Source: Candidatus Woesearchaeota archaeon B3_Woes (GTDB taxonomy: Archaea; Nanobdellota; Nanobdellia; Woesearchaeales; B3-WOES). From it: DNA of 64,000 nucleotides. The translations under genes and the position numbers were made by a program. This document shows positions 2,479 to 48,690 of this stretch, one piece after another (position 1 is the first letter of the stretch; each line of letters opens with the position of its first letter). The stretch covers positions 613,533 to 677,532 of the forward strand of contig NJBG01000001.1 in the NCBI GenBank assembly GCA_005222965.1, written 5' to 3'. The notes under the pieces were generated by a model that searched no databases, was not told the DNA's origin, and saw nothing but the letters and a program-made list of their open reading frames with translations.

Positions 2479-2523
2479 AATAATGAAAAGCTTATTAAAA
2501 CAATATAAATTTATTCATTATAT

Positions 2524-2613
2524 GCGCCCGTAGCTCAGTCTGGATAGAGCGATTCCCTCCTAATATTATCAGAAGAGAGGAATAGGTCGGGGGTTCAAAT
2601 CCTCCTGGGCGCG
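2524..2613 (+). tRNA. tRNA-Arg(CCU) with a 15-nt intron at 37/38 (2563-2577)
   Basis: Acceptor GCGCCCG/TGGGCGC; ATTCC-CT-CCT-A[ATATTATCAGAAGAG]A-GGAAT; GGTTCAAATCC T arm; 75 nt after splicing. Confidence 0.92.
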
Positions 2614-2682
2614 TTTATCTTAATAAGTGAGCTTGACGAGTAAAGCTAGGAAACCCACAAAGTGTCAAGTGATTTTGCACTT

Positions 2683-41957: not shown

Positions 41958-42304
41958 TAGGGTAAGAGTAAGCCACCTTCTGTAGGAACCTTTGTGTTGT
42001 AATATTACAACGATGCTCCTTCTTAGCATTTAACTAAGCGTTTAAAACTTGCACCGACCAGGTCTCATCGTTTCATCCTTTCGTTTAAAGACGTCAACAG
42101 GTTAACTCGCCCCTGTTACCAGGAGTTTCACCGCATCATCCCATTTTAAACGTGGTTTCGTTTCTGTATGGTTGCCATCCATTACTGAATGAGGTCTTTC
42201 ACCACTGGCCATATTACTTAATTATATTAAGTAATGGTGGGCGGACTTTCCTCAGCAAATCAATACAGAAGCATCAATTCACCGTCAGCTAAGTTCTTAC
42301 CCTA
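41958..42304 (-). ncRNA. rnpB: RNase P RNA
   Basis: Terminal helix TAGGGTAAGA/TCTTACCCTA; GAGGAAAGTCC (CR-I); ACAGAAAC; TGAAAC; GGTGCAAG; ACAGAAGGTGGCTTA (CR-V). Confidence 0.92.
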
Positions 42305-42702: not shown

Positions 42703-42975
42703 ATGCAAGAAAAACTCTTAAAACAGATGATTGAAAGAATGGATATTTTAATCAACTTAGGCATTCCACCTTTTAGCCCTGAAAAATATCCTGTTTCAGG
42801 ACTTTCCTGCGATATTTTAAAATTGTGTAATGCAGAGAATACTGTGGAAGATATAATCAAAAAAACAGGAAAAAATAGGAACCAGGTTGATGTAAATCTA
42901 AGCAAACTAAGAAGATTAGGGCTTATAAAGTCAATCACCAAAGACGGCAAAATATATTATTTAAGAATAAAGTGA
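42703..42975 (+). CDS. Small N-helix plus winged-HTH protein (type A)
   Basis: TVEDIIKKTGKNRNQVDVNLSKLRRLGLI...YYLR; paralog of 44420..44692. Confidence 0.8.
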   Translation: MQEKLLKQMIERMDILINLGIPPFSPEKYPVSGLSCDILKLCNAENTVEDIIKKTGKNRNQVDVNLSKLRRLGLIKSITKDGKIYYLRIK

Positions 42976-42983
42976 GGTACAAA

Positions 42984-43202
42984 ATGGAATCAAATGATAT
43001 AAAAGCACTCACCAAAAGAATGGATGTAATCATAAACTTAATGATGAGAGATATAAAATTTAATGGAAATAACATAACGGACGCTGAAAAAATCAAATTG
43101 CTCAATGATATGGGTCTTAAATATACAGAAATCGCTGATATTATGGGAAAAACCCCTACTAATGTAAGTGTTGTGCTTGCAAAATTGAAGAGAAAAAAAT
43201 GA
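42984..43202 (+). CDS. Small N-helix plus HTH protein (type B)
   Basis: GAGGT RBS; GLKYTEIADIMGKTPTNVSVVL. Confidence 0.8.
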   Translation: MESNDIKALTKRMDVIINLMMRDIKFNGNNITDAEKIKLLNDMGLKYTEIADIMGKTPTNVSVVLAKLKRKK

Positions 43203-43417
43203 CTGAAGCAATACTACATGAAATTAGTAAAAAATTGGACAAATTGATAGCTATAAGTGCAATTCAAGGAAAAGATGAAGATAGGCAGATAAAAATCCTA
43301 AAATCTCTTAAGTTTACATATAAAGATATTAGTAATCTAATAGGGATACCAGAAGGAACACTAAAAATAAGAGACCATAGAGAGAGGAAAAATTTAAATG
43401 CAAAATCTAAATCCTAA
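43199..43417 (+). CDS. Small N-helix plus HTH protein (type B paralog)
   Basis: ATGA coupling; FTYKDISNLIGIPEGTLK. Confidence 0.8.
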   Translation: MTEAILHEISKKLDKLIAISAIQGKDEDRQIKILKSLKFTYKDISNLIGIPEGTLKIRDHRERKNLNAKSKS

Positions 43418-44123
43418 AATTATCAAATATTTGGAGAAAAAAACAGGTCAAAAAGAAGCAACGATTAGAACTAACATATCATTGCTTAAAAGAACATTCT
43501 CAGGTTCTACATCCAACGCAGTTGCCCATATTTATGCTCAAAAACACGGATATTCTGTTATGAGGATGATGGATCAAGAAGACAAAACGTCCTTACCTAA
43601 CATCGAAGTCAATAAACCAATAAAAATTAGTCAAAAAAAACCAATAAAAAAAGAAAAAATCGTAAAATTCATTAATTACAATTCCTCTGATTATTTTATA
43701 AAATCACATATTTTAGAAGTTAACAGGGCCTATACAAAAGGTTGTTTAACCTCAGTCAATATATTAATAAGAAAAATCATAGAAAATCTAATAATTGACG
43801 TATTAAGAAAAAAATTTCCACCAAATGGAACTAATATTGAACTATATTATGATACAAATCGAAAGAGATACAAAGATTTTAGTGTTGTTCTTGATAGTTT
43901 ATATCAAAAAAGGACGGAGTTTGATGGCACCGATGTGGGAAAAATTATTGAAAGACTAGTGCCTCTAGCAAAAAAAATTAAAGATGACGCTAATGATAAA
44001 ACCCACTCTTGGTTTTATATAGTAAATTCAAAGAAAGAGTTAGATGATTTGTGCATTAATGATATCATAGAATTGATAAAGAAATTAGAAATGTCAGTAG
44101 GAATTCGAAAAGAAGGTGAATAA
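43398..44123 (+). CDS. Two-domain protein: N-terminal helical domain plus HEPN/DUF4145-like C-terminal domain
   Basis: EVNRAY...LIRKIIENLI and KDDANDKTH resemble the HEPN Rx4-6H signature in degenerate form; Lys/Pro linker. Confidence 0.6.
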   Translation: MQNLNPKIIKYLEKKTGQKEATIRTNISLLKRTFSGSTSNAVAHIYAQKHGYSVMRMMDQEDKTSLPNIEVNKPIKISQKKPIKKEKIVKFINYNSSDYFIKSHILEVNRAYTKGCLTSVNILIRKIIENLIIDVLRKKFPPNGTNIELYYDTNRKRYKDFSVVLDSLYQKRTEFDGTDVGKIIERLVPLAKKIKDDANDKTHSWFYIVNSKKELDDLCINDIIELIKKLEMSVGIRKEGE

Positions 44124-44409
44124 AACGAACGAAAAAGAATTACTCTCGGAAATTTTAAAATGGGAAAGACTAAAAGGAATTCAAACTTTAAGGCAGATTA
44201 TACCTGAATTGATAGATACAGAAGAAAAAAGAAAGCTTTATGAAATGACTGATGGAAAAAACGGAATAAAAGAAATTCAATCAAAGGTGACGATCTCCTC
44301 TGGAAAAATCTCTTTATTGTGGAATTTTTGGTATTATAATGGTCTTTTAGAAAAAGAAGGGCAAAAATTTAAGAAGATAATCTCATTAAAGGAGTTAGGA
44401 CTAAGTTGA
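44116..44409 (+). CDS. Small N-helix plus winged-HTH protein (type C)
   Basis: KRKLYEMTDGKN...W..W...GLL...FKKIISL; paralog of 44701..45015. Confidence 0.8.
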   Translation: MNKTNEKELLSEILKWERLKGIQTLRQIIPELIDTEEKRKLYEMTDGKNGIKEIQSKVTISSGKISLLWNFWYYNGLLEKEGQKFKKIISLKELGLS

Positions 44410-44419
44410 GGTGATTTAA

Positions 44420-44692
44420 ATAGATAAGAAACTTGAAGACATCAAAAAACAACTAGATATTATCATTTCATTAATGATCCCTCCTTTCTCCAAGGATAAA
44501 TATAATCTTAAAGAAGGTACTCAAATGGATGTGTTAGAGTTATGTGATTTAAGTTGTACTCAACAAGATATGGCCTCCGAATTAAAAAAGACAAAAAAGG
44601 CAATAAGTAGGGCAATAGAAGAACTTAAATCAAAAAATTTGATTAGAGTTGTAAAAAGGAAAGATAGAAATATCTATTTGAGACTGAAGTAG
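44420..44692 (+). CDS. Type A paralog; probable start is ATA at 44420
   Basis: GAGGTGA RBS 5 nt before an in-frame ATA; the extension DKKLEDIKKQLDIIISLMIPPFS aligns with the N-terminus of 42703..42975. Confidence 0.75.
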   Translation: MDKKLEDIKKQLDIIISLMIPPFSKDKYNLKEGTQMDVLELCDLSCTQQDMASELKKTKKAISRAIEELKSKNLIRVVKRKDRNIYLRLK

Positions 44693-44700
44693 GTGTAATT

Positions 44701-45015
44701 ATGAATAATGATATAATAAAAGAATTAAAGAAGCAGAATAAATGGTTAAGGTTCTTGGCTTTTAACTCTTTGAGAGGCATATTAAGATCTTCTTTAGAAA
44801 ATAATGAACAAAAGCGAATCTATCAATTATCTGATGGCAAAAATAGTACTAATGAGATTTCTAAGAAACTACAAGAAGAAGGTATTAAAATAAGTCATAT
44901 GACTGTATATAATTATTGGAAAAGGTGGAATGCCCTAGGAATTGTTGAACCTTCAGAAAAGTATTCAGGAAGATTCAAAAAAATAGTAAATCTTGATAAT
45001 TTTAATTTAAATTGA
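44701..45015 (+). CDS. Type C paralog, winged HTH
   Basis: AGGTG RBS; KRIYQLSDGKNS...YWKRWNALGIV...FKKIVNL. Confidence 0.8.
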   Translation: MNNDIIKELKKQNKWLRFLAFNSLRGILRSSLENNEQKRIYQLSDGKNSTNEISKKLQEEGIKISHMTVYNYWKRWNALGIVEPSEKYSGRFKKIVNLDNFNLN

Positions 45016-45069
45016 TTTATTGATAGAGATATTGATAAGAATTTTTATATTAAAAGAATATATTTAAAA

Positions 45070-45115
45070 CACCACCGCCCGGATTCGAACCAGGATATCC
45101 TTGCGGAAACCAGCT
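45070..45115 (-). repeat. Intron-less copy of the tRNA-Ser 3' half (positions 38-73), att-like
   Basis: AGCTGGTTTCCGCAAGGATATCCTGGTTCGAATCCGGGCGGTGGTG, 44/46 identical to the spliced 3' half of the gene at 48370-48543. Confidence 0.9.
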
Positions 45116-45158
45116 TACATGCAAATGTTTAAGACTTTACTTATTTTAAAATTAGAAT

Positions 45159-46655
45159 TCACAGTTTTCTTACAATACCTTTATCAGCATCAACTTCAAC
45201 ATAATCTCCGTCTTTGAAAACTTTTGTTCCAACCTGGGTTAAAATAAGACAAGGAATCTTGAATTCTCTGGCCACAATAGAAGTATGTGAAAGTAAAGAT
45301 CCTTGGTCAGCAACAATAGCAGCCGATTTTTTAATTACTGAAGTCAATTCAGTTGTTGTATCTCTAGTAACCATAATGTTTCCTTGTTCAATTTTCTTAG
45401 CTTCATTAACTGAAGTAATAACTTTAACAATGCCCTTAACTTTTCCAGGGTAAGCAACAACTCCCTTAACTTCTTGATAATTATCAACAGATTCTTTCCA
45501 CATTAACTTATTACCCATCTCTACAGCTTTATCTCCCTGATAAATAGTTATCTCCATGTTCTCTAAAAGGATAGTTCTATGTGCTTTTCTCTCAGCAATG
45601 TCCTGCTGATTAGCTTTTGTCCCATCTCGCAGCATCTTTCTGATTTCGTCAGGAGTATTGTAACGTACATCAATCCAGTCTCCAGAATCTGTACGCTTAC
45701 CAATCTCACTCAGCAATGGTCTGGAAACATAAATCCCTTCAACTAAATCAGCCTTGGTGTAATCTAGAATAATCAAAAATTCCTGCATTGCAAAAACAAG
45801 ATTTTTAAAGAAATCTGAACAAGTGTGTGTTGCAAAGAATTCAGCCTGAAACTTTTTGGTTAGCTCAAGTCTTTCATTAGGAGACTTTAAATCCTTCCAA
45901 TCAACATTCCCTGCTTTAAATTCCTCAATTCTCTTCCAGAGATGTTTTTTATAATCTTCTATCTCCCAGGCAGTTCTAATATATTCCTGATGAAATGATC
46001 CATAAAGTTTTACTAATTGATTTAATTTTTCCTTAATCTCTTCTTTTTCACAAAATTCATTAAAAACCTCCAATTTCTTCTCACTAACAATATTCTCAAA
46101 CTCGTTTTGGATTTCAAAAAGTAACTGTTCTTCCTTCTGAACAGTTGTTAGTCTTGTTGGAGTTAACAGAAGTGCAGTAAATTCAATGATTTTACCTTGA
46201 GTCTTTTCACCGTCATTAAGAATTTTTAATAACTCTTTCTCAAATAAATCCTGCAAGTCAGAAACATAAATCGCCCACACCATTGGATGAATTGTAGCAA
46301 GGTAAAGATAATAGTATTTATTAAAGAACCCTATAAGTTCCTCATTTGTTGATTTTGAAAAGTCGATTCCTCCAAACTCTTTAATCTCCTCCAGAGCATC
46401 TTTATAGAATTTATCTAAGTTAGCAAAAAAGTCTGCAGTATATTTCCCTTCCAGCAACTCTTTTTCAGTCAAATTTCTAACTTCTTTTCTGTCATCAATA
46501 TGATAGCAAGTTCTTGCTGGAGGACCATCTGCAACCAATAATGCTTTTTTGATCATAACATCTGTCCTAGGAATTTTAGTTCTGTATGAATCTACTATTC
46601 CATAACCTTCTAAAAAAGTCTGGTTTCTGATACCCACAGTTACATATTTTTTCAT
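45159..46655 (-). CDS. PEP-utilizing enzyme swivel (phospho-His) domain protein, without an ATP-grasp domain
   Basis: KGVVAYPGKVKG...AAIVADQGSLLSHTSIVAREFKIPC...DGDYVEVDADKG. Confidence 0.85.
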   Translation of the reverse strand: MKKYVTVGIRNQTFLEGYGIVDSYRTKIPRTDVMIKKALLVADGPPARTCYHIDDRKEVRNLTEKELLEGKYTADFFANLDKFYKDALEEIKEFGGIDFSKSTNEELIGFFNKYYYLYLATIHPMVWAIYVSDLQDLFEKELLKILNDGEKTQGKIIEFTALLLTPTRLTTVQKEEQLLFEIQNEFENIVSEKKLEVFNEFCEKEEIKEKLNQLVKLYGSFHQEYIRTAWEIEDYKKHLWKRIEEFKAGNVDWKDLKSPNERLELTKKFQAEFFATHTCSDFFKNLVFAMQEFLIILDYTKADLVEGIYVSRPLLSEIGKRTDSGDWIDVRYNTPDEIRKMLRDGTKANQQDIAERKAHRTILLENMEITIYQGDKAVEMGNKLMWKESVDNYQEVKGVVAYPGKVKGIVKVITSVNEAKKIEQGNIMVTRDTTTELTSVIKKSAAIVADQGSLLSHTSIVAREFKIPCLILTQVGTKVFKDGDYVEVDADKGIVRKL

Positions 46656-46656
46656 C

Positions 46657-47499
46657 CTATTTTTTCAGATAATTTTTGATCTTAACATTCCCTTCAATTG
46701 GACGTAAACTTTCTCTGCCATCACGCAGATCTTCCTTAGTATAACCTAAAACCATAACTTCATCATGGTCTTGTGGGAATATATGTCTTTGTTCACTCCC
46801 AAAATTTTTAGACATATTGCAACCAATTGTTCCAAAAGCCGAATATTCCAAATTGAATCCACTTGATGAACATGAAGAAACAACTACAATATTTAAAGGT
46901 TTAGAAGCCTTGTCTGCTTTTTCAATAACACTCCCTTGAAAATTACATACTTGCCTTTCTATTTCATCAAAAGAAGCAAGTGTTTGATCTCCAGGAAACA
47001 CTGCTTGTCGTAAATCCCTGTCAGAATAAGCTCCACTATATAAAGGGTCAAAAGGATAAATTCCCATTTTCACAGGATCAAAACTAATTTCTCTTCCATC
47101 TGGCAATTCCACATAATAAAGACCATCCCATCTTGGTTGAAATCTACTTAATTGGTATGTCTGTTCAGTTTCTATAGGTGGTTGTTCAGACATCTGTCCA
47201 GATAAGACAGCATTAAGGCTATCATCTGGAATAATAATTCCATTATATCCAACTTCTTCCTTAATTCTTTCTAAAGTCTGATTATGTCTTTTTAACGTAC
47301 CAGTTAAAATACAATTAAGATTTTCAATACTCTTTACTAATTGAGAAAGATCACTAACAGCTACTCTACCTTCTTTAGTCAATCCAGTATCTCTTTCACC
47401 AAAGCCCTGTCTATTTTGAACAGACTCTTGATGTCTTATAAAATACAAAGTTAACAATAAATTATTCTCATCCATTTTAACAATTAAGTGCTTTTTCAA
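46657..47499 (-). CDS. Histidine phosphatase superfamily protein
   Basis: LYFIRHQES...GLTKEG...LKRHNQT (RHG-like motif); the start could be the internal ATG. Confidence 0.7.
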   Translation of the reverse strand: MKKHLIVKMDENNLLLTLYFIRHQESVQNRQGFGERDTGLTKEGRVAVSDLSQLVKSIENLNCILTGTLKRHNQTLERIKEEVGYNGIIIPDDSLNAVLSGQMSEQPPIETEQTYQLSRFQPRWDGLYYVELPDGREISFDPVKMGIYPFDPLYSGAYSDRDLRQAVFPGDQTLASFDEIERQVCNFQGSVIEKADKASKPLNIVVVSSCSSSGFNLEYSAFGTIGCNMSKNFGSEQRHIFPQDHDEVMVLGYTKEDLRDGRESLRPIEGNVKIKNYLKK

Positions 47500-48265
47500 T
47501 ATGACTATATATTTCCTGTAAAAACCCTATATCCTGTGGAGTTAATTTATCTTCTCTTTTAGTTTCTAGATGTGTTCTCCAATTTGGAGCAGAGACTTCT
47601 CTTTCATCTAACACAGATTTAACAAAAGGAACATGATAATCTCCAACACACACAACAATTTTTCCATCATGTTTGTTTCTAAAATGTCTTATGTCAGGAC
47701 CCCACAATTCAAACTCTCTTACATCTCCTAAAAATTTTTCAAAATCATAACTAAAGTGATCTAAGTCTCTTTGGTCTAATTCATTTTCTTCCCAATATTG
47801 AAGTAATCTCATATAATTTTTCAAGGTTCTCTCGACATCTAAAAAACTAAATCTTCCTCTATAAACCCCAGCAAAAGCAAGAGTAGATTCAAAAGATATA
47901 TCTATTCCTTCTTGATAGCAATTTCTAACATGGACACAAGGAACAAATAGTTCAGCAATATGCTCAGGAACATACTTTAAAACAATCTCCCCAATATCTT
48001 CATCTACTCTATTCCCTGACAAATATTCAATCAGTACTTGCCCAACAGAAGCTTTAACTAATAATTCGGTTGACATAGGATGAAATTGTGCTTGAAATTC
48101 TTCTGGAGTTTCCATCATCAAAGCAGATGTATTTTCTAAAGAGGTAATTAATTCAAGCACAGAATCTTGCGGGATTTGAAATCCATGATCAATAGATCCC
48201 ACTAAGACGTATCGTCCTTTTGGATCTTTTACAATATTAGGTTTATTAGTGGTTCTTTCTATCAT
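47477..48265 (-). CDS. Hypothetical protein, TraB/GumN/EreA-like metallohydrolase fold suspected
   Basis: VLVGSIDH, LMME, IVVCVGDYHV pattern. Confidence 0.5.
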   Translation of the reverse strand: MIERTTNKPNIVKDPKGRYVLVGSIDHGFQIPQDSVLELITSLENTSALMMETPEEFQAQFHPMSTELLVKASVGQVLIEYLSGNRVDEDIGEIVLKYVPEHIAELFVPCVHVRNCYQEGIDISFESTLAFAGVYRGRFSFLDVERTLKNYMRLLQYWEENELDQRDLDHFSYDFEKFLGDVREFELWGPDIRHFRNKHDGKIVVCVGDYHVPFVKSVLDEREVSAPNWRTHLETKREDKLTPQDIGFLQEIYSHIEKALNC

Positions 48266-48369
48266 TTTAATAATTAAGCGATTTTAATGTCACTTTATAG
48301 TGGTTATTTATTTATAAAACCTTCTATTTTATGTAATATAACTGTATATTAAACTATTATAGAATAATA

Positions 48370-48543
48370 CGCCACCGCCCGGACTTTCGATGCAAAGCAT
48401 TGAAATTTTCTTCGCTTATTCGAACCAGGATATCCTTGCGGAAACCGGCTAACCTGATATCCTATGTGGATTAACACTCAAGGCTTACGCTTCTAACCCA
48501 TACGAGCTAGAATCGGCGCAGTACCAGATTGTGCCACGGTGGC
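48370..48543 (-). tRNA. tRNA-Ser(UGA) with three BHB introns (29/30: 48485-48513; 37/38: 48451-48476; 59/60: 48384-48418)
   Basis: Removing the three introns gives an 84-nt cloverleaf with CCGGC-CT-TGA-GA-GCCGG, a long variable arm and G73; each intron forms a bulge-helix-bulge. Confidence 0.9.
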
Positions 48544-48594: not shown

Positions 48595-48690
48595 TAAATA
48601 CAAACCTTTATATCAACCTTAATACAAAGTATAATACCAACATTAATACAAAGAGTAATACAAACCTAAATACCAACCATTATACTATTA
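48595..48690. repeat. Tandem 12-bp imperfect repeat array (7-8 units, consensus WWAATACMAACC)
   Basis: taaatacaaacc tttatatcaacc ttaatacaaagt ataataccaaca ttaatacaaaga gtaatacaaacc taaataccaacc attatactatta. Confidence 0.8.

Follow-up and report, generated by a model that had tools for sequence, protein, structure and literature searches.

Layout of the locus

The DNA analysed here is a stretch of 64,000 nucleotides (nt) from Candidatus Woesearchaeota archaeon B3_Woes (G000:C1:613533-677532), hereafter called the window. The genome comprises 1.02 Mb in four contigs; its small size and its disrupted tRNAs point to a DPANN-type archaeon. The G+C content (guanine plus cytosine) of the window is 30.8%. 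In the window a tRNA-Ser(UGA) gene with three predicted introns and a detached, intron-less copy of its 3' part enclose an islet of 3.3 kb, and the present study concerns the relation between the T-loop intron of the gene and the detached copy. Coordinates are positions in the window unless they carry the prefix C1 or C3 (contigs of the genome) or L (loci).

The tRNA-Ser(UGA) gene occupies 48370..48543 on the minus strand and is the only gene for the UGA isoacceptor that was found in the genome. It measures 174 nt, and 84 nt after removal of the three predicted introns, which were placed by visual alignment with the Ser(GGA) and Ser(CGA) genes of the same genome and with the gene of a distant relative, G017. 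The sequence spliced in silico was called as tRNA-Ser(tga) by ARAGORN; the unspliced gene was missed by ARAGORN, in default and intron modes, and by Rfam. A first-pass annotation of the locus had credited the functional gene with one intron. We placed three, at the tRNA positions 29/30, 37/38 and 59/60.

The 59/60 intron (48384..48418, minus strand, 35 nt) lies in the T-loop and has a canonical hBHBh' motif. Drawn by hand, its bulge-helix-bulge (BHB) structure has a 4-bp central helix with the bulges AA|U and AG|U, and folding with ViennaRNA paired TTCGA with TCGAA beside the T-stem. The canonical 37/38 intron (48451..48476, minus strand, 26 nt) was drawn by hand with the helix CUUG/CAGG and the bulges AG|U and UU|A. 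For the 29/30 intron (48485..48513, minus strand, 29 nt) the boundaries are forced by the CCGGC/GCCGG anticodon stem; the hand-drawn motif has the 4-bp helix GCGC/GCGT with the bulges CG|A and AA|G, and the intron hairpin was folded with ViennaRNA. Thus all three can be drawn as BHB motifs with a 4-bp central helix, 3-nt bulges and a cut after the second bulge nucleotide, and ViennaRNA independently folded the helices of the 59/60 and 29/30 introns. From their letters and folds the three disruptions are predicted BHB introns. The genome contains a single EndA gene (PF01974, E 1.3e-28), a 195-amino-acid (aa) open reading frame (ORF) at C1:502.6 kb. The anticodon loop is untouched by the 59/60 intron and is interrupted by the 29/30 and 37/38 introns of this allele. 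Just upstream of the gene, at 48597-48685 on the plus strand, five overlapping copies of a 29-nt repeat containing AATAC follow each other at spacings of 24, 12, 12 and 12 nt.

A displaced copy of the 3' part of the gene

The distal copy lies at 45070..45115 on the minus strand and corresponds to A38-G73 of the tRNA. It has 46 nt, of which 44 are identical to the gene (C41T and C72T are the two differences), and reads TTCGAATCCGGG uninterrupted where the gene carries the 59/60 intron. Its counterpart at the gene is the proximal repeat arm, split by the intron into tRNA positions 38-59 (48419..48450, minus strand) and 60-73 (48370..48383, minus strand). Both blastn-short and a direct-repeat search recovered this arrangement, so that the intron in the gene and the uninterrupted distal copy, as described in the first-pass annotation, were confirmed. 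The repeat search paired 45083-45121 with 48418-48456 (39 nt, 92%) and 45065-45083 with 48365-48383 (19 nt, 89%); the start-to-start spacings of 3335 and 3300 therefore differ by exactly 35 nt, the length of the 59/60 intron.

When the copy was searched with blastn-short against the 1.02-Mb genome, the only matches besides itself were 29 nt and 12 nt at 100%, both in the gene. The copy does not derive from the CGA or GGA isoacceptor, because no match elsewhere in the genome exceeds 17 nt; the check for an isoacceptor that matches better thus returned none. A third copy of the repeat was not found in the window between 36 and 56 kb, with up to 3 mismatches allowed per 16-mer. A tRNA-Ala that ARAGORN called on the distal copy at low threshold was rejected as spurious. 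Precise loss of the intron by slippage was rejected as well, as the TCGAA end repeats would leave TTCGAAAGTCC and not TTCGAATCC.

The islet and its genes

Three genes lie between the repeats, all in the sense of the tRNA. ORF1 (45159..46655, minus strand, 498 aa) has a C-terminal PEP-utilising (phosphoenolpyruvate-utilising, phosphohistidine swivel) domain (PF00391, E 3.6e-19; also by NCBIfam), and its stop codon is 43 nt from the distal copy. ORF2 (46657..47475, minus strand, 272 aa from ATG) belongs to the histidine phosphatase superfamily (PF00300, E 1.4e-9). ORF3 (47477..48265, minus strand, 262 aa) matched no curated family, and the only lead was a TraB/PrgY/GumN-like match in the ESM Atlas (scores near 0.9, TM score 0.43). 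ORF2 and ORF3 have the same 15 nt in front of their start codons. In the three islet ORFs no recombinase was found by Pfam, NCBIfam, PHROGs or PADLOC; for defence or phage functions PADLOC gave no match and PHROGs only weak matches to kinases and unknown proteins.

The ORF1 family has about 15 paralogues in the genome, mostly at C1:866-897 kb. This cluster holds about 13 of these PEP-utilising-domain proteins of some 500 aa, and many other genomes of the order also carry several members of the family. At E <= 1e-5 ORF1 had matches in 182 of the order's 201 genomes, in many of them only by the swivel domain; this tally includes four genomes flagged as unpublished. The best full-length relatives are in G043 (37%) and G027 (36%), and no relative was found in public genome contigs. 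In G043 and G027 an ORF2 homologue (51% and 39%, respectively) lies directly upstream of the ORF1 homologue, as here. No tRNA was detected within about 7 kb of these two pairs by ARAGORN and a T-arm regular expression, scans which intron-bearing tRNAs escape. The recurrence of the ORF2-ORF1 pair away from any tRNA found fits mobile cargo.

On the far side of the distal copy, at 42703-45015 on the plus strand, small ORFs have weak matches to helix-turn-helix (HTH) proteins (ArsR, Xre-like, Crp-like). Contigs of relatives give little cover of 44300-45000, and this side may also be strain-specific. Between these ORFs and an SMC gene lies the archaeal RNase P RNA (41958-42304, minus strand; RF00373, 125 bits, E 1.9e-36).

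Alleles of the locus in close relatives

Logan contigs from four sequencing runs of two studies were compared with the region, and the relatives found in them are labelled X1, X2 and X3. Each run covers only a small share of the stretch (0.08-0.16). Those parts of 44300-45000 and 47473-48140 without cover were used as evidence only where contigs join across them. Additionally, an exact-pattern scan was performed with the intron-less T-arm plus acceptor as query. It returned no match in viral contigs, and matched one unrelated Ser(CGA) gene in genome contigs and five metagenomic loci, two of which (L037 and L038) are the same unrelated Ser(CGA) locus; L039, L040 and L041 are the three relevant ones.

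L041 has an upstream flank that is 88.3% identical to this locus over 350 nt. Its gene carries the 59/60 intron only, 35/35 identical to the intron here. The gene is followed by a 249-aa S-adenosylmethionine (SAM) methyltransferase in the sense of the tRNA, then by a 24-nt arm and an intron-less copy which runs from C32 to G73 (positions 32-73). The same arm, ATAAGTAAAGTCTTAAACATTTGC, lies here at 45121..45144 (minus strand) beside the distal copy, and 23 of its 24 nt are kept in L041 despite the different cargo. The flank of L039 is 97.1% identical to L041 and 88.6% to this locus, and its gene is without any intron. In the 2 kb downstream of L039 no repeat was found, and they match neither the far flank here nor that of L041. 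L040 breaks off within the variable arm; 13 nt of its downstream flank match this locus.

The contigs of X2 and X3, from two studies, show ORF1 and ORF2 beside the gene, with the 59/60 stretch present and the other two introns absent. The most complete view came from X2 record 14 (4205 nt), which contains ORF1 and ORF2, skips 47473-48262 and continues, with one gap, through 48263-48444, where the 59/60 intron lies in this genome. Then 17 letters replace 48445-48516 and the upstream flank follows. The anticodon arm encoded by these 17 letters is free of introns, differs in its stem and is also that of L041 and L039. Positions 27-43 read CCG[i]GC..[i]AGCCGG here, with [i] for an intron, as in the distant G017, and TGGGCCTTGAGAGCCTA in X2, X3, L041 and L039, all four of which are without the 29/30 and 37/38 introns. 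Among close relatives the same gene is therefore present with none (L039), one (L041) and three introns (here). Because a close relative carries an intron-less allele, the gene is polymorphic for the 59/60 intron, and the comparison of relatives, which the first-pass annotation had proposed as a check, thus yielded both an intron-less and a one-intron allele.

The islet differs between strains. A methyltransferase takes the place between the repeats in L041, and contigs of X1, X2 and X3 from two studies join 47472 directly to 48263, without the 790-nt stretch (47473..48262) that holds ORF3; 15 nt are shared at both borders of this stretch. The islet is 95.6% identical to the contigs of the relatives (84 differences in 1914 nt), as against 87.7% for the upstream flank (78 in 634). 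Together, the repeat and the varying cargo bear out the earlier description of the copy as attachment-site (att)-like and bracketing a strain-variable islet. The arrangement is not an assembly artefact, since X2 record 14, an independent contig, and L041 share the layout, and the suspicion of a misassembly was not supported. One contig joint, from 45109 to 48517, falls inside the repeat, where its placement is ambiguous. A joint in X1 from 45144 to 48369 would mean a site without cargo, but as a single contig with 27 nt on its short side it was too weak to use.

The apparent start of the distal copy at position 38, the canonical splice junction, had been singled out in the first-pass annotation. 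The start is there in this copy, but the coincidence carries no weight, because the L041 copy begins at C32 and includes the anticodon loop. The similarity breaks at position 38 because the working gene has the 37/38 intron there, and 4 of the 6 nt just 5' of position 38 in the copy match the end of that intron. Here 45116..45120 (minus strand), together with positions 38-43, form an 11-nt patch that differs from the L041 copy at 6 of 11 positions; around it, 54 nt differ at only 2 positions between the two copies.

Distribution of the 59/60 intron

Forty relatives were searched for tRNA-Ser genes with 59/60 introns, and six had them (G001, G003, G010, G017, G028 and G040). These introns usually end in ..GAAAG|T. 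In G001, of the same family, the Ser(UGA) gene has the 59/60 intron only. G017 has three introns at the same places as here, the one at 29/30 also with the same ends, and the same acceptor and anticodon stems. The 59/60 intron of G028 is 35 nt long with the TTCGAAT loop found here, and that of G040 sits in Ser(GCU). Intron-less Ser(UGA) genes were found in G009 and G022. When the window from 36 to 58 kb was compared by tblastx with 18 tRNA-Ser loci and 20 kb of G017, the sole common neighbour was one TrmB-like gene; shared neighbours are nearly absent because the relatives compared are too distant.

In the genome itself at least four other tRNAs have 59/60 introns (C1 ~37.9 kb, plus strand; ~82.8 kb, minus; ~212.8 kb, minus; ~213.2 kb, plus), picked by eye as tRNA-like rows from a very noisy regular-expression scan. 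Their introns are 23-36 nt long and end in AAG|T, and standard finders missed them or scored them low. With the anticodon loop TTGCTA, the tRNA at C1 ~213.2 kb is a candidate for the missing Ser(GCU). As the same class occurs in other tRNAs of the genome and in relatives, the 59/60 intron is not newly born. The locus had been called a snapshot of intron gain; what stands of this is the polymorphism, with L039 intron-less, and what does not is a recent birth, the class being old. The proposed search for the intron elsewhere likewise succeeded in part, with the class in at least four other tRNAs and no phage-type attachment site (attP) in the viral-contig scans.

Two relatives show rearranged tRNA-Ser(UGA) loci. 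In G003:C55 (L003) two 5' parts of the gene, cut after the variable arm, come first; behind them stand one complete gene that bears an intron and, separately, a T-arm/acceptor piece that matches the second of the 5' parts. In G009:C40 (L008) a middle fragment with a 37/38 intron lies upstream of the intron-less tRNA-Ser(UGA) gene, and a 14-nt fragment (positions 60-73) of another allele lies 12 nt downstream of it.

Origin of the intron and of the distal copy

We tentatively favour the reading that the distal copy is an att-type scar left by a Campbell-type insertion. In this event an allele with the intron would have recombined with one lacking it, and the part with the intron would have come from the incoming DNA. 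A circular DNA with a tRNA-Ser-like block would have inserted into the 3' part of the sole tRNA-Ser(UGA) gene, which would leave a functional gene at one end, the displaced and decaying 3' part as an attR-like scar at the other and integrase-less cargo between. The partners would have differed by the 59/60 intron, and both kinds of allele exist in nature. After a single crossover, whatever lies 3' of the crossover would be incoming in the working gene and native in the distal copy. A crossover left of position 59 would therefore make the intron incoming and the native gene intron-less, with the incoming DNA supplying the intron-bearing 3' part and the native intron-less one becoming the scar. 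The 790-nt ORF3 stretch would be a later insertion into the islet. From this arrangement we infer a Campbell mechanism, a recombinase that acts in trans, and the direction in which the DNA was transferred. Judged on the alleles, recombination at this site would swap tRNA introns in and out.

The most likely place of the crossover is the anticodon-loop region, towards the left end of the repeat. Integrases that target tRNA genes usually leave a block of identity that spans from the crossover site to the 3' end of the gene, and we therefore placed the crossover left of the intron. That the repeat block starts in the anticodon loop, the place of crossover for integrases with blocks of this type, was counted for such a left-hand crossover. 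The allele-specific stem strand of the copy also agrees with the host allele, with GCTGG in the copy and GCCGG in the gene here, and GCCTA in both in L041. That the 59/60 intron is 35/35 identical across lineages whose flanks differ by 12% was counted for an incoming intron. Finally, the intron is found in the reconstituted gene, none is found in the displaced fragment, and an intron-less allele occurs in the population, as in the model for Caldiarchaeum discussed below.

Several observations weigh against this reading. No integrase was found by Pfam in the islet or among the 29 ORFs of the window between 29.5 and 64 kb, and the only PF00589 matches in the genome are two tyrosine recombinases at C1:103 kb and C1:856 kb. 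A free element or attP had 0 matches in three viral-contig scans. The DNA downstream of L039 is unmatched, which leaves an empty site there unproven. In the 11-nt patch (positions 33-43) the copy is closer to the allele of this genome than to the copy of L041, and a single ancestral insertion does not account for that; on its letters the patch may stem from conversion by the genome's own intron-bearing gene, which would need 3 changes instead of 6. Other scars in the genome have 13-14-nt cores at position 60, so a recombinase may cross 3' of the intron and keep a native intron. Likewise, the intron could be native because Ser(UGA) of G001, in the same family, has one at 59/60.

The last two points lead to a possible but rather unlikely course, in which the native gene already bore the intron, the crossover fell in the 14 nt of positions 60-73 and the distal positions 32/38-59 are the intron-less arm of the element. 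End copies from about position 60 behind Arg(CCU), Gln and Ser(GGA) (twice), and in G009 and G026, agree with this, as do the 59/60 introns of G001, G017, G028, G003 and G010. The first nt after the gene of L039 resemble the element side of L041 and not its far flank, and L039 may therefore be an occupied site that received an intron-less half. However, an element crossing at 60-73 needs no positions 32-59, and its arm would have to co-vary with the host, since in both genomes the stem strand of the copy follows the host allele. Identity of the intron at 35/35 positions beside flanks of 88% would have a chance of 0.883^35, about 0.013, if the intron were neutral. We consider it less probable still that the insertion came first, between two intron-less partners, and that the 59/60 intron arrived later by gene conversion or homologous recombination with the allele of a relative. 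Conversion does occur at this gene, because positions 27-43 were swapped whole between relatives with about 88% flank identity, and the identical intron stands in two lineages with different cargo. This sequence of events needs an extra step, and intron and insertion co-occur in 3/3 informative loci, two occupied with the intron and the intron-less L039 without a detected repeat.

Very improbable, by comparison, is that the copy arose from RNA, as a retro-copy of the spliced tRNA, or that it is the functional 3' half of a split tRNA of the Nanoarchaeum type, although it lacks the intron and apparently starts at position 38, a point of splitting and splicing. At 17 inspected [AG]CCACCG sites a tRNA-like sequence followed only at the gene itself, so no partner 5' half was found, and a Ser-type D-arm was found only in the three known Ser genes. 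Just 43 nt separate the copy from the ORF1 stop codon, and the L041 copy starts at C32 and abuts the conserved 24-nt arm. For a retro-copy, the end of the copy shows neither a CCA tail nor poly-A, and no reverse transcriptase was found near the locus in the Pfam scan of ORFs from 29.5 to 64 kb. With an intron-less DNA allele in L039 an RNA intermediate is unnecessary, and together with the arm common to L041 this led us to abandon the spliced-RNA origin that had been listed in the first-pass annotation. An intron-bearing 3' half supplied by the element, also listed there, is viable and matches the published Caldiarchaeum model (PMC3293823).

Comparison with known systems

The origin of archaeal tRNA introns outside the anticodon loop is still argued. 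The direct precedent at population level that we found is the tRNA-Thr(GGU) locus of Caldiarchaeum subterraneum (Sugahara et al. 2012), where an attP with an intron is modelled to recombine with a bacterial-type site (attB) without one (PMC3293823). The two systems share a working gene with an extra non-canonical intron, an intron-free direct-repeat fragment a few kb away, DNA between them, and alleles which differ in intron number within close relatives. They differ in that Caldiarchaeum has a 5' fragment, a 24/25 intron and a 1.8-kb insert encoding a recombinase (PMC3293823), whereas here we see a 3' fragment, a 59/60 T-loop intron, an islet without recombinase and with strain-variable cargo, and a third allele with two further introns, in a 1.02-Mb archaeon that is not an Aigarchaeon. 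The present locus is thus a second natural example of a known, little-documented process. New are the different archaeal lineage, the T-loop position, and the series of 0, 1 and 3 introns among relatives with 88-97% identical flanks; a displaced half without the intron survives next to the working gene, and the locus makes the idea of mobile DNA carrying tRNA introns testable. A narrow literature search, without supplements, turned up no publication on this locus and none on an islet that delivers a 59/60 intron.

With integration of the SSV1 and pNOB8 types, as described in PMC3293823, the locus shares the reconstituted tRNA and a repeat of the 3' part (~44 bp) at the far border. Unlike the pNOB8 type it has no intact integrase by the tRNA, and unlike the SSV type no integrase halves on the repeats. 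ORF3 occupies the position of the pNOB8 integrase but shows no recombinase signal, and the islet has only 3.3 kb.

It has been proposed that introns shield tRNA genes against integration (Randau and Soll 2008, cited in PMC4090602). The gene at this occupied site bears the 59/60 intron, which thus did not stop the insertion, so that tRNA genes with an intron at this position are not exempt from insertions. That the intron would block reuse of the att site, as the first-pass annotation suggested, is a conjecture; the presumed crossover region is interrupted by the 29/30 and 37/38 introns alone. For DPANN lineages whose EndA carries inserts, PMC5829648 describes more tRNA disruption, and it also notes incomplete tRNA sets. 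Shared with these known cases are introns outside the anticodon loop, BHB motifs, a single EndA, and many tRNAs that standard finders miss. A free-standing 3' half from about position 38 also recalls the split tRNAs of Nanoarchaeum equitans (PMC3491384, PMC3218864). In contrast to these, no partner 5' half, complementary leader or space for an own promoter was found here, and a full gene is present.

End copies at other tRNA genes

A search with 13-mers showed end copies in sensible orientation (3' end downstream, 5' end upstream) at 5/34 tRNA genes of the genome. There were 6 matches where about 0.4 were expected, and none in the wrong orientation. A search for other orphan tRNA ends with blastn-short found none, being too blunt a test, as the 13-mer search did find some. 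Copies of 13-14 nt that start at or within a few nt of position 60 follow tRNA-Arg(CCU), tRNA-Gln and, twice, tRNA-Ser(GGA), and similar end copies occur in G009 and G026. Partial or nested tRNA-Ser copies are present in G009, G026 and G003. The tRNA-Ser genes of this group are hot spots of recombination.

Two cassettes, 2.5 kb and 1.4 kb long, lie behind tRNA-Ser(GGA) (L045, C1:979171-983147, minus strand), and all their ORFs have the sense of the tRNA. Each cassette ends with a conserved 43-nt trailer and a 13-nt copy of the tRNA 3' end, and the 40 nt that directly follow the tRNA recur behind the first 13-nt copy. The first cassette has three ORFs, including a dehydroquinate-synthase-like gene and one with an HATPase domain (HATPase_c), and the second carries a Na+/H+ exchanger. 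It is conceivable, though doubtful, that the tRNA-Ser genes of the order serve as docking sites for cassettes, with arms and tRNA 3' blocks moving integrase-less cargo and 59/60 introns between genomes. The 59/60 class might then descend from scars, as is suggested by end copies that begin near position 60, close to the bond which the intron interrupts, and the 29/30 and 37/38 introns, as later arrivals in this genome, would have split the crossover site in the anticodon loop and locked the islet in place.

Smaller features of this kind lie elsewhere. tRNA-Arg(CCU) (2523-2614, plus strand) has a 15-nt intron, and 77 nt past its end an 18-nt repeat at 2690-2707 corresponds to its positions 60-73 (2690-2703) plus TTTA, with one mismatch, a small att-like scar. 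A 13-nt copy of the 3' end of tRNA-Gln (C1:193076-193148, minus strand) lies 75 nt downstream of that gene, and the tRNA at C1:197811-197904 (plus strand) is preceded, at 75 nt, by a 13-nt copy of its own 5' end; each copy has one mismatch. On the 6.3-kb contig C3, four intron-less tRNAs (Lys, Glu, Val, Thr) are tightly packed at C3:5815-6162, unlike in the rest of the genome, and this contig may be foreign to the bin.

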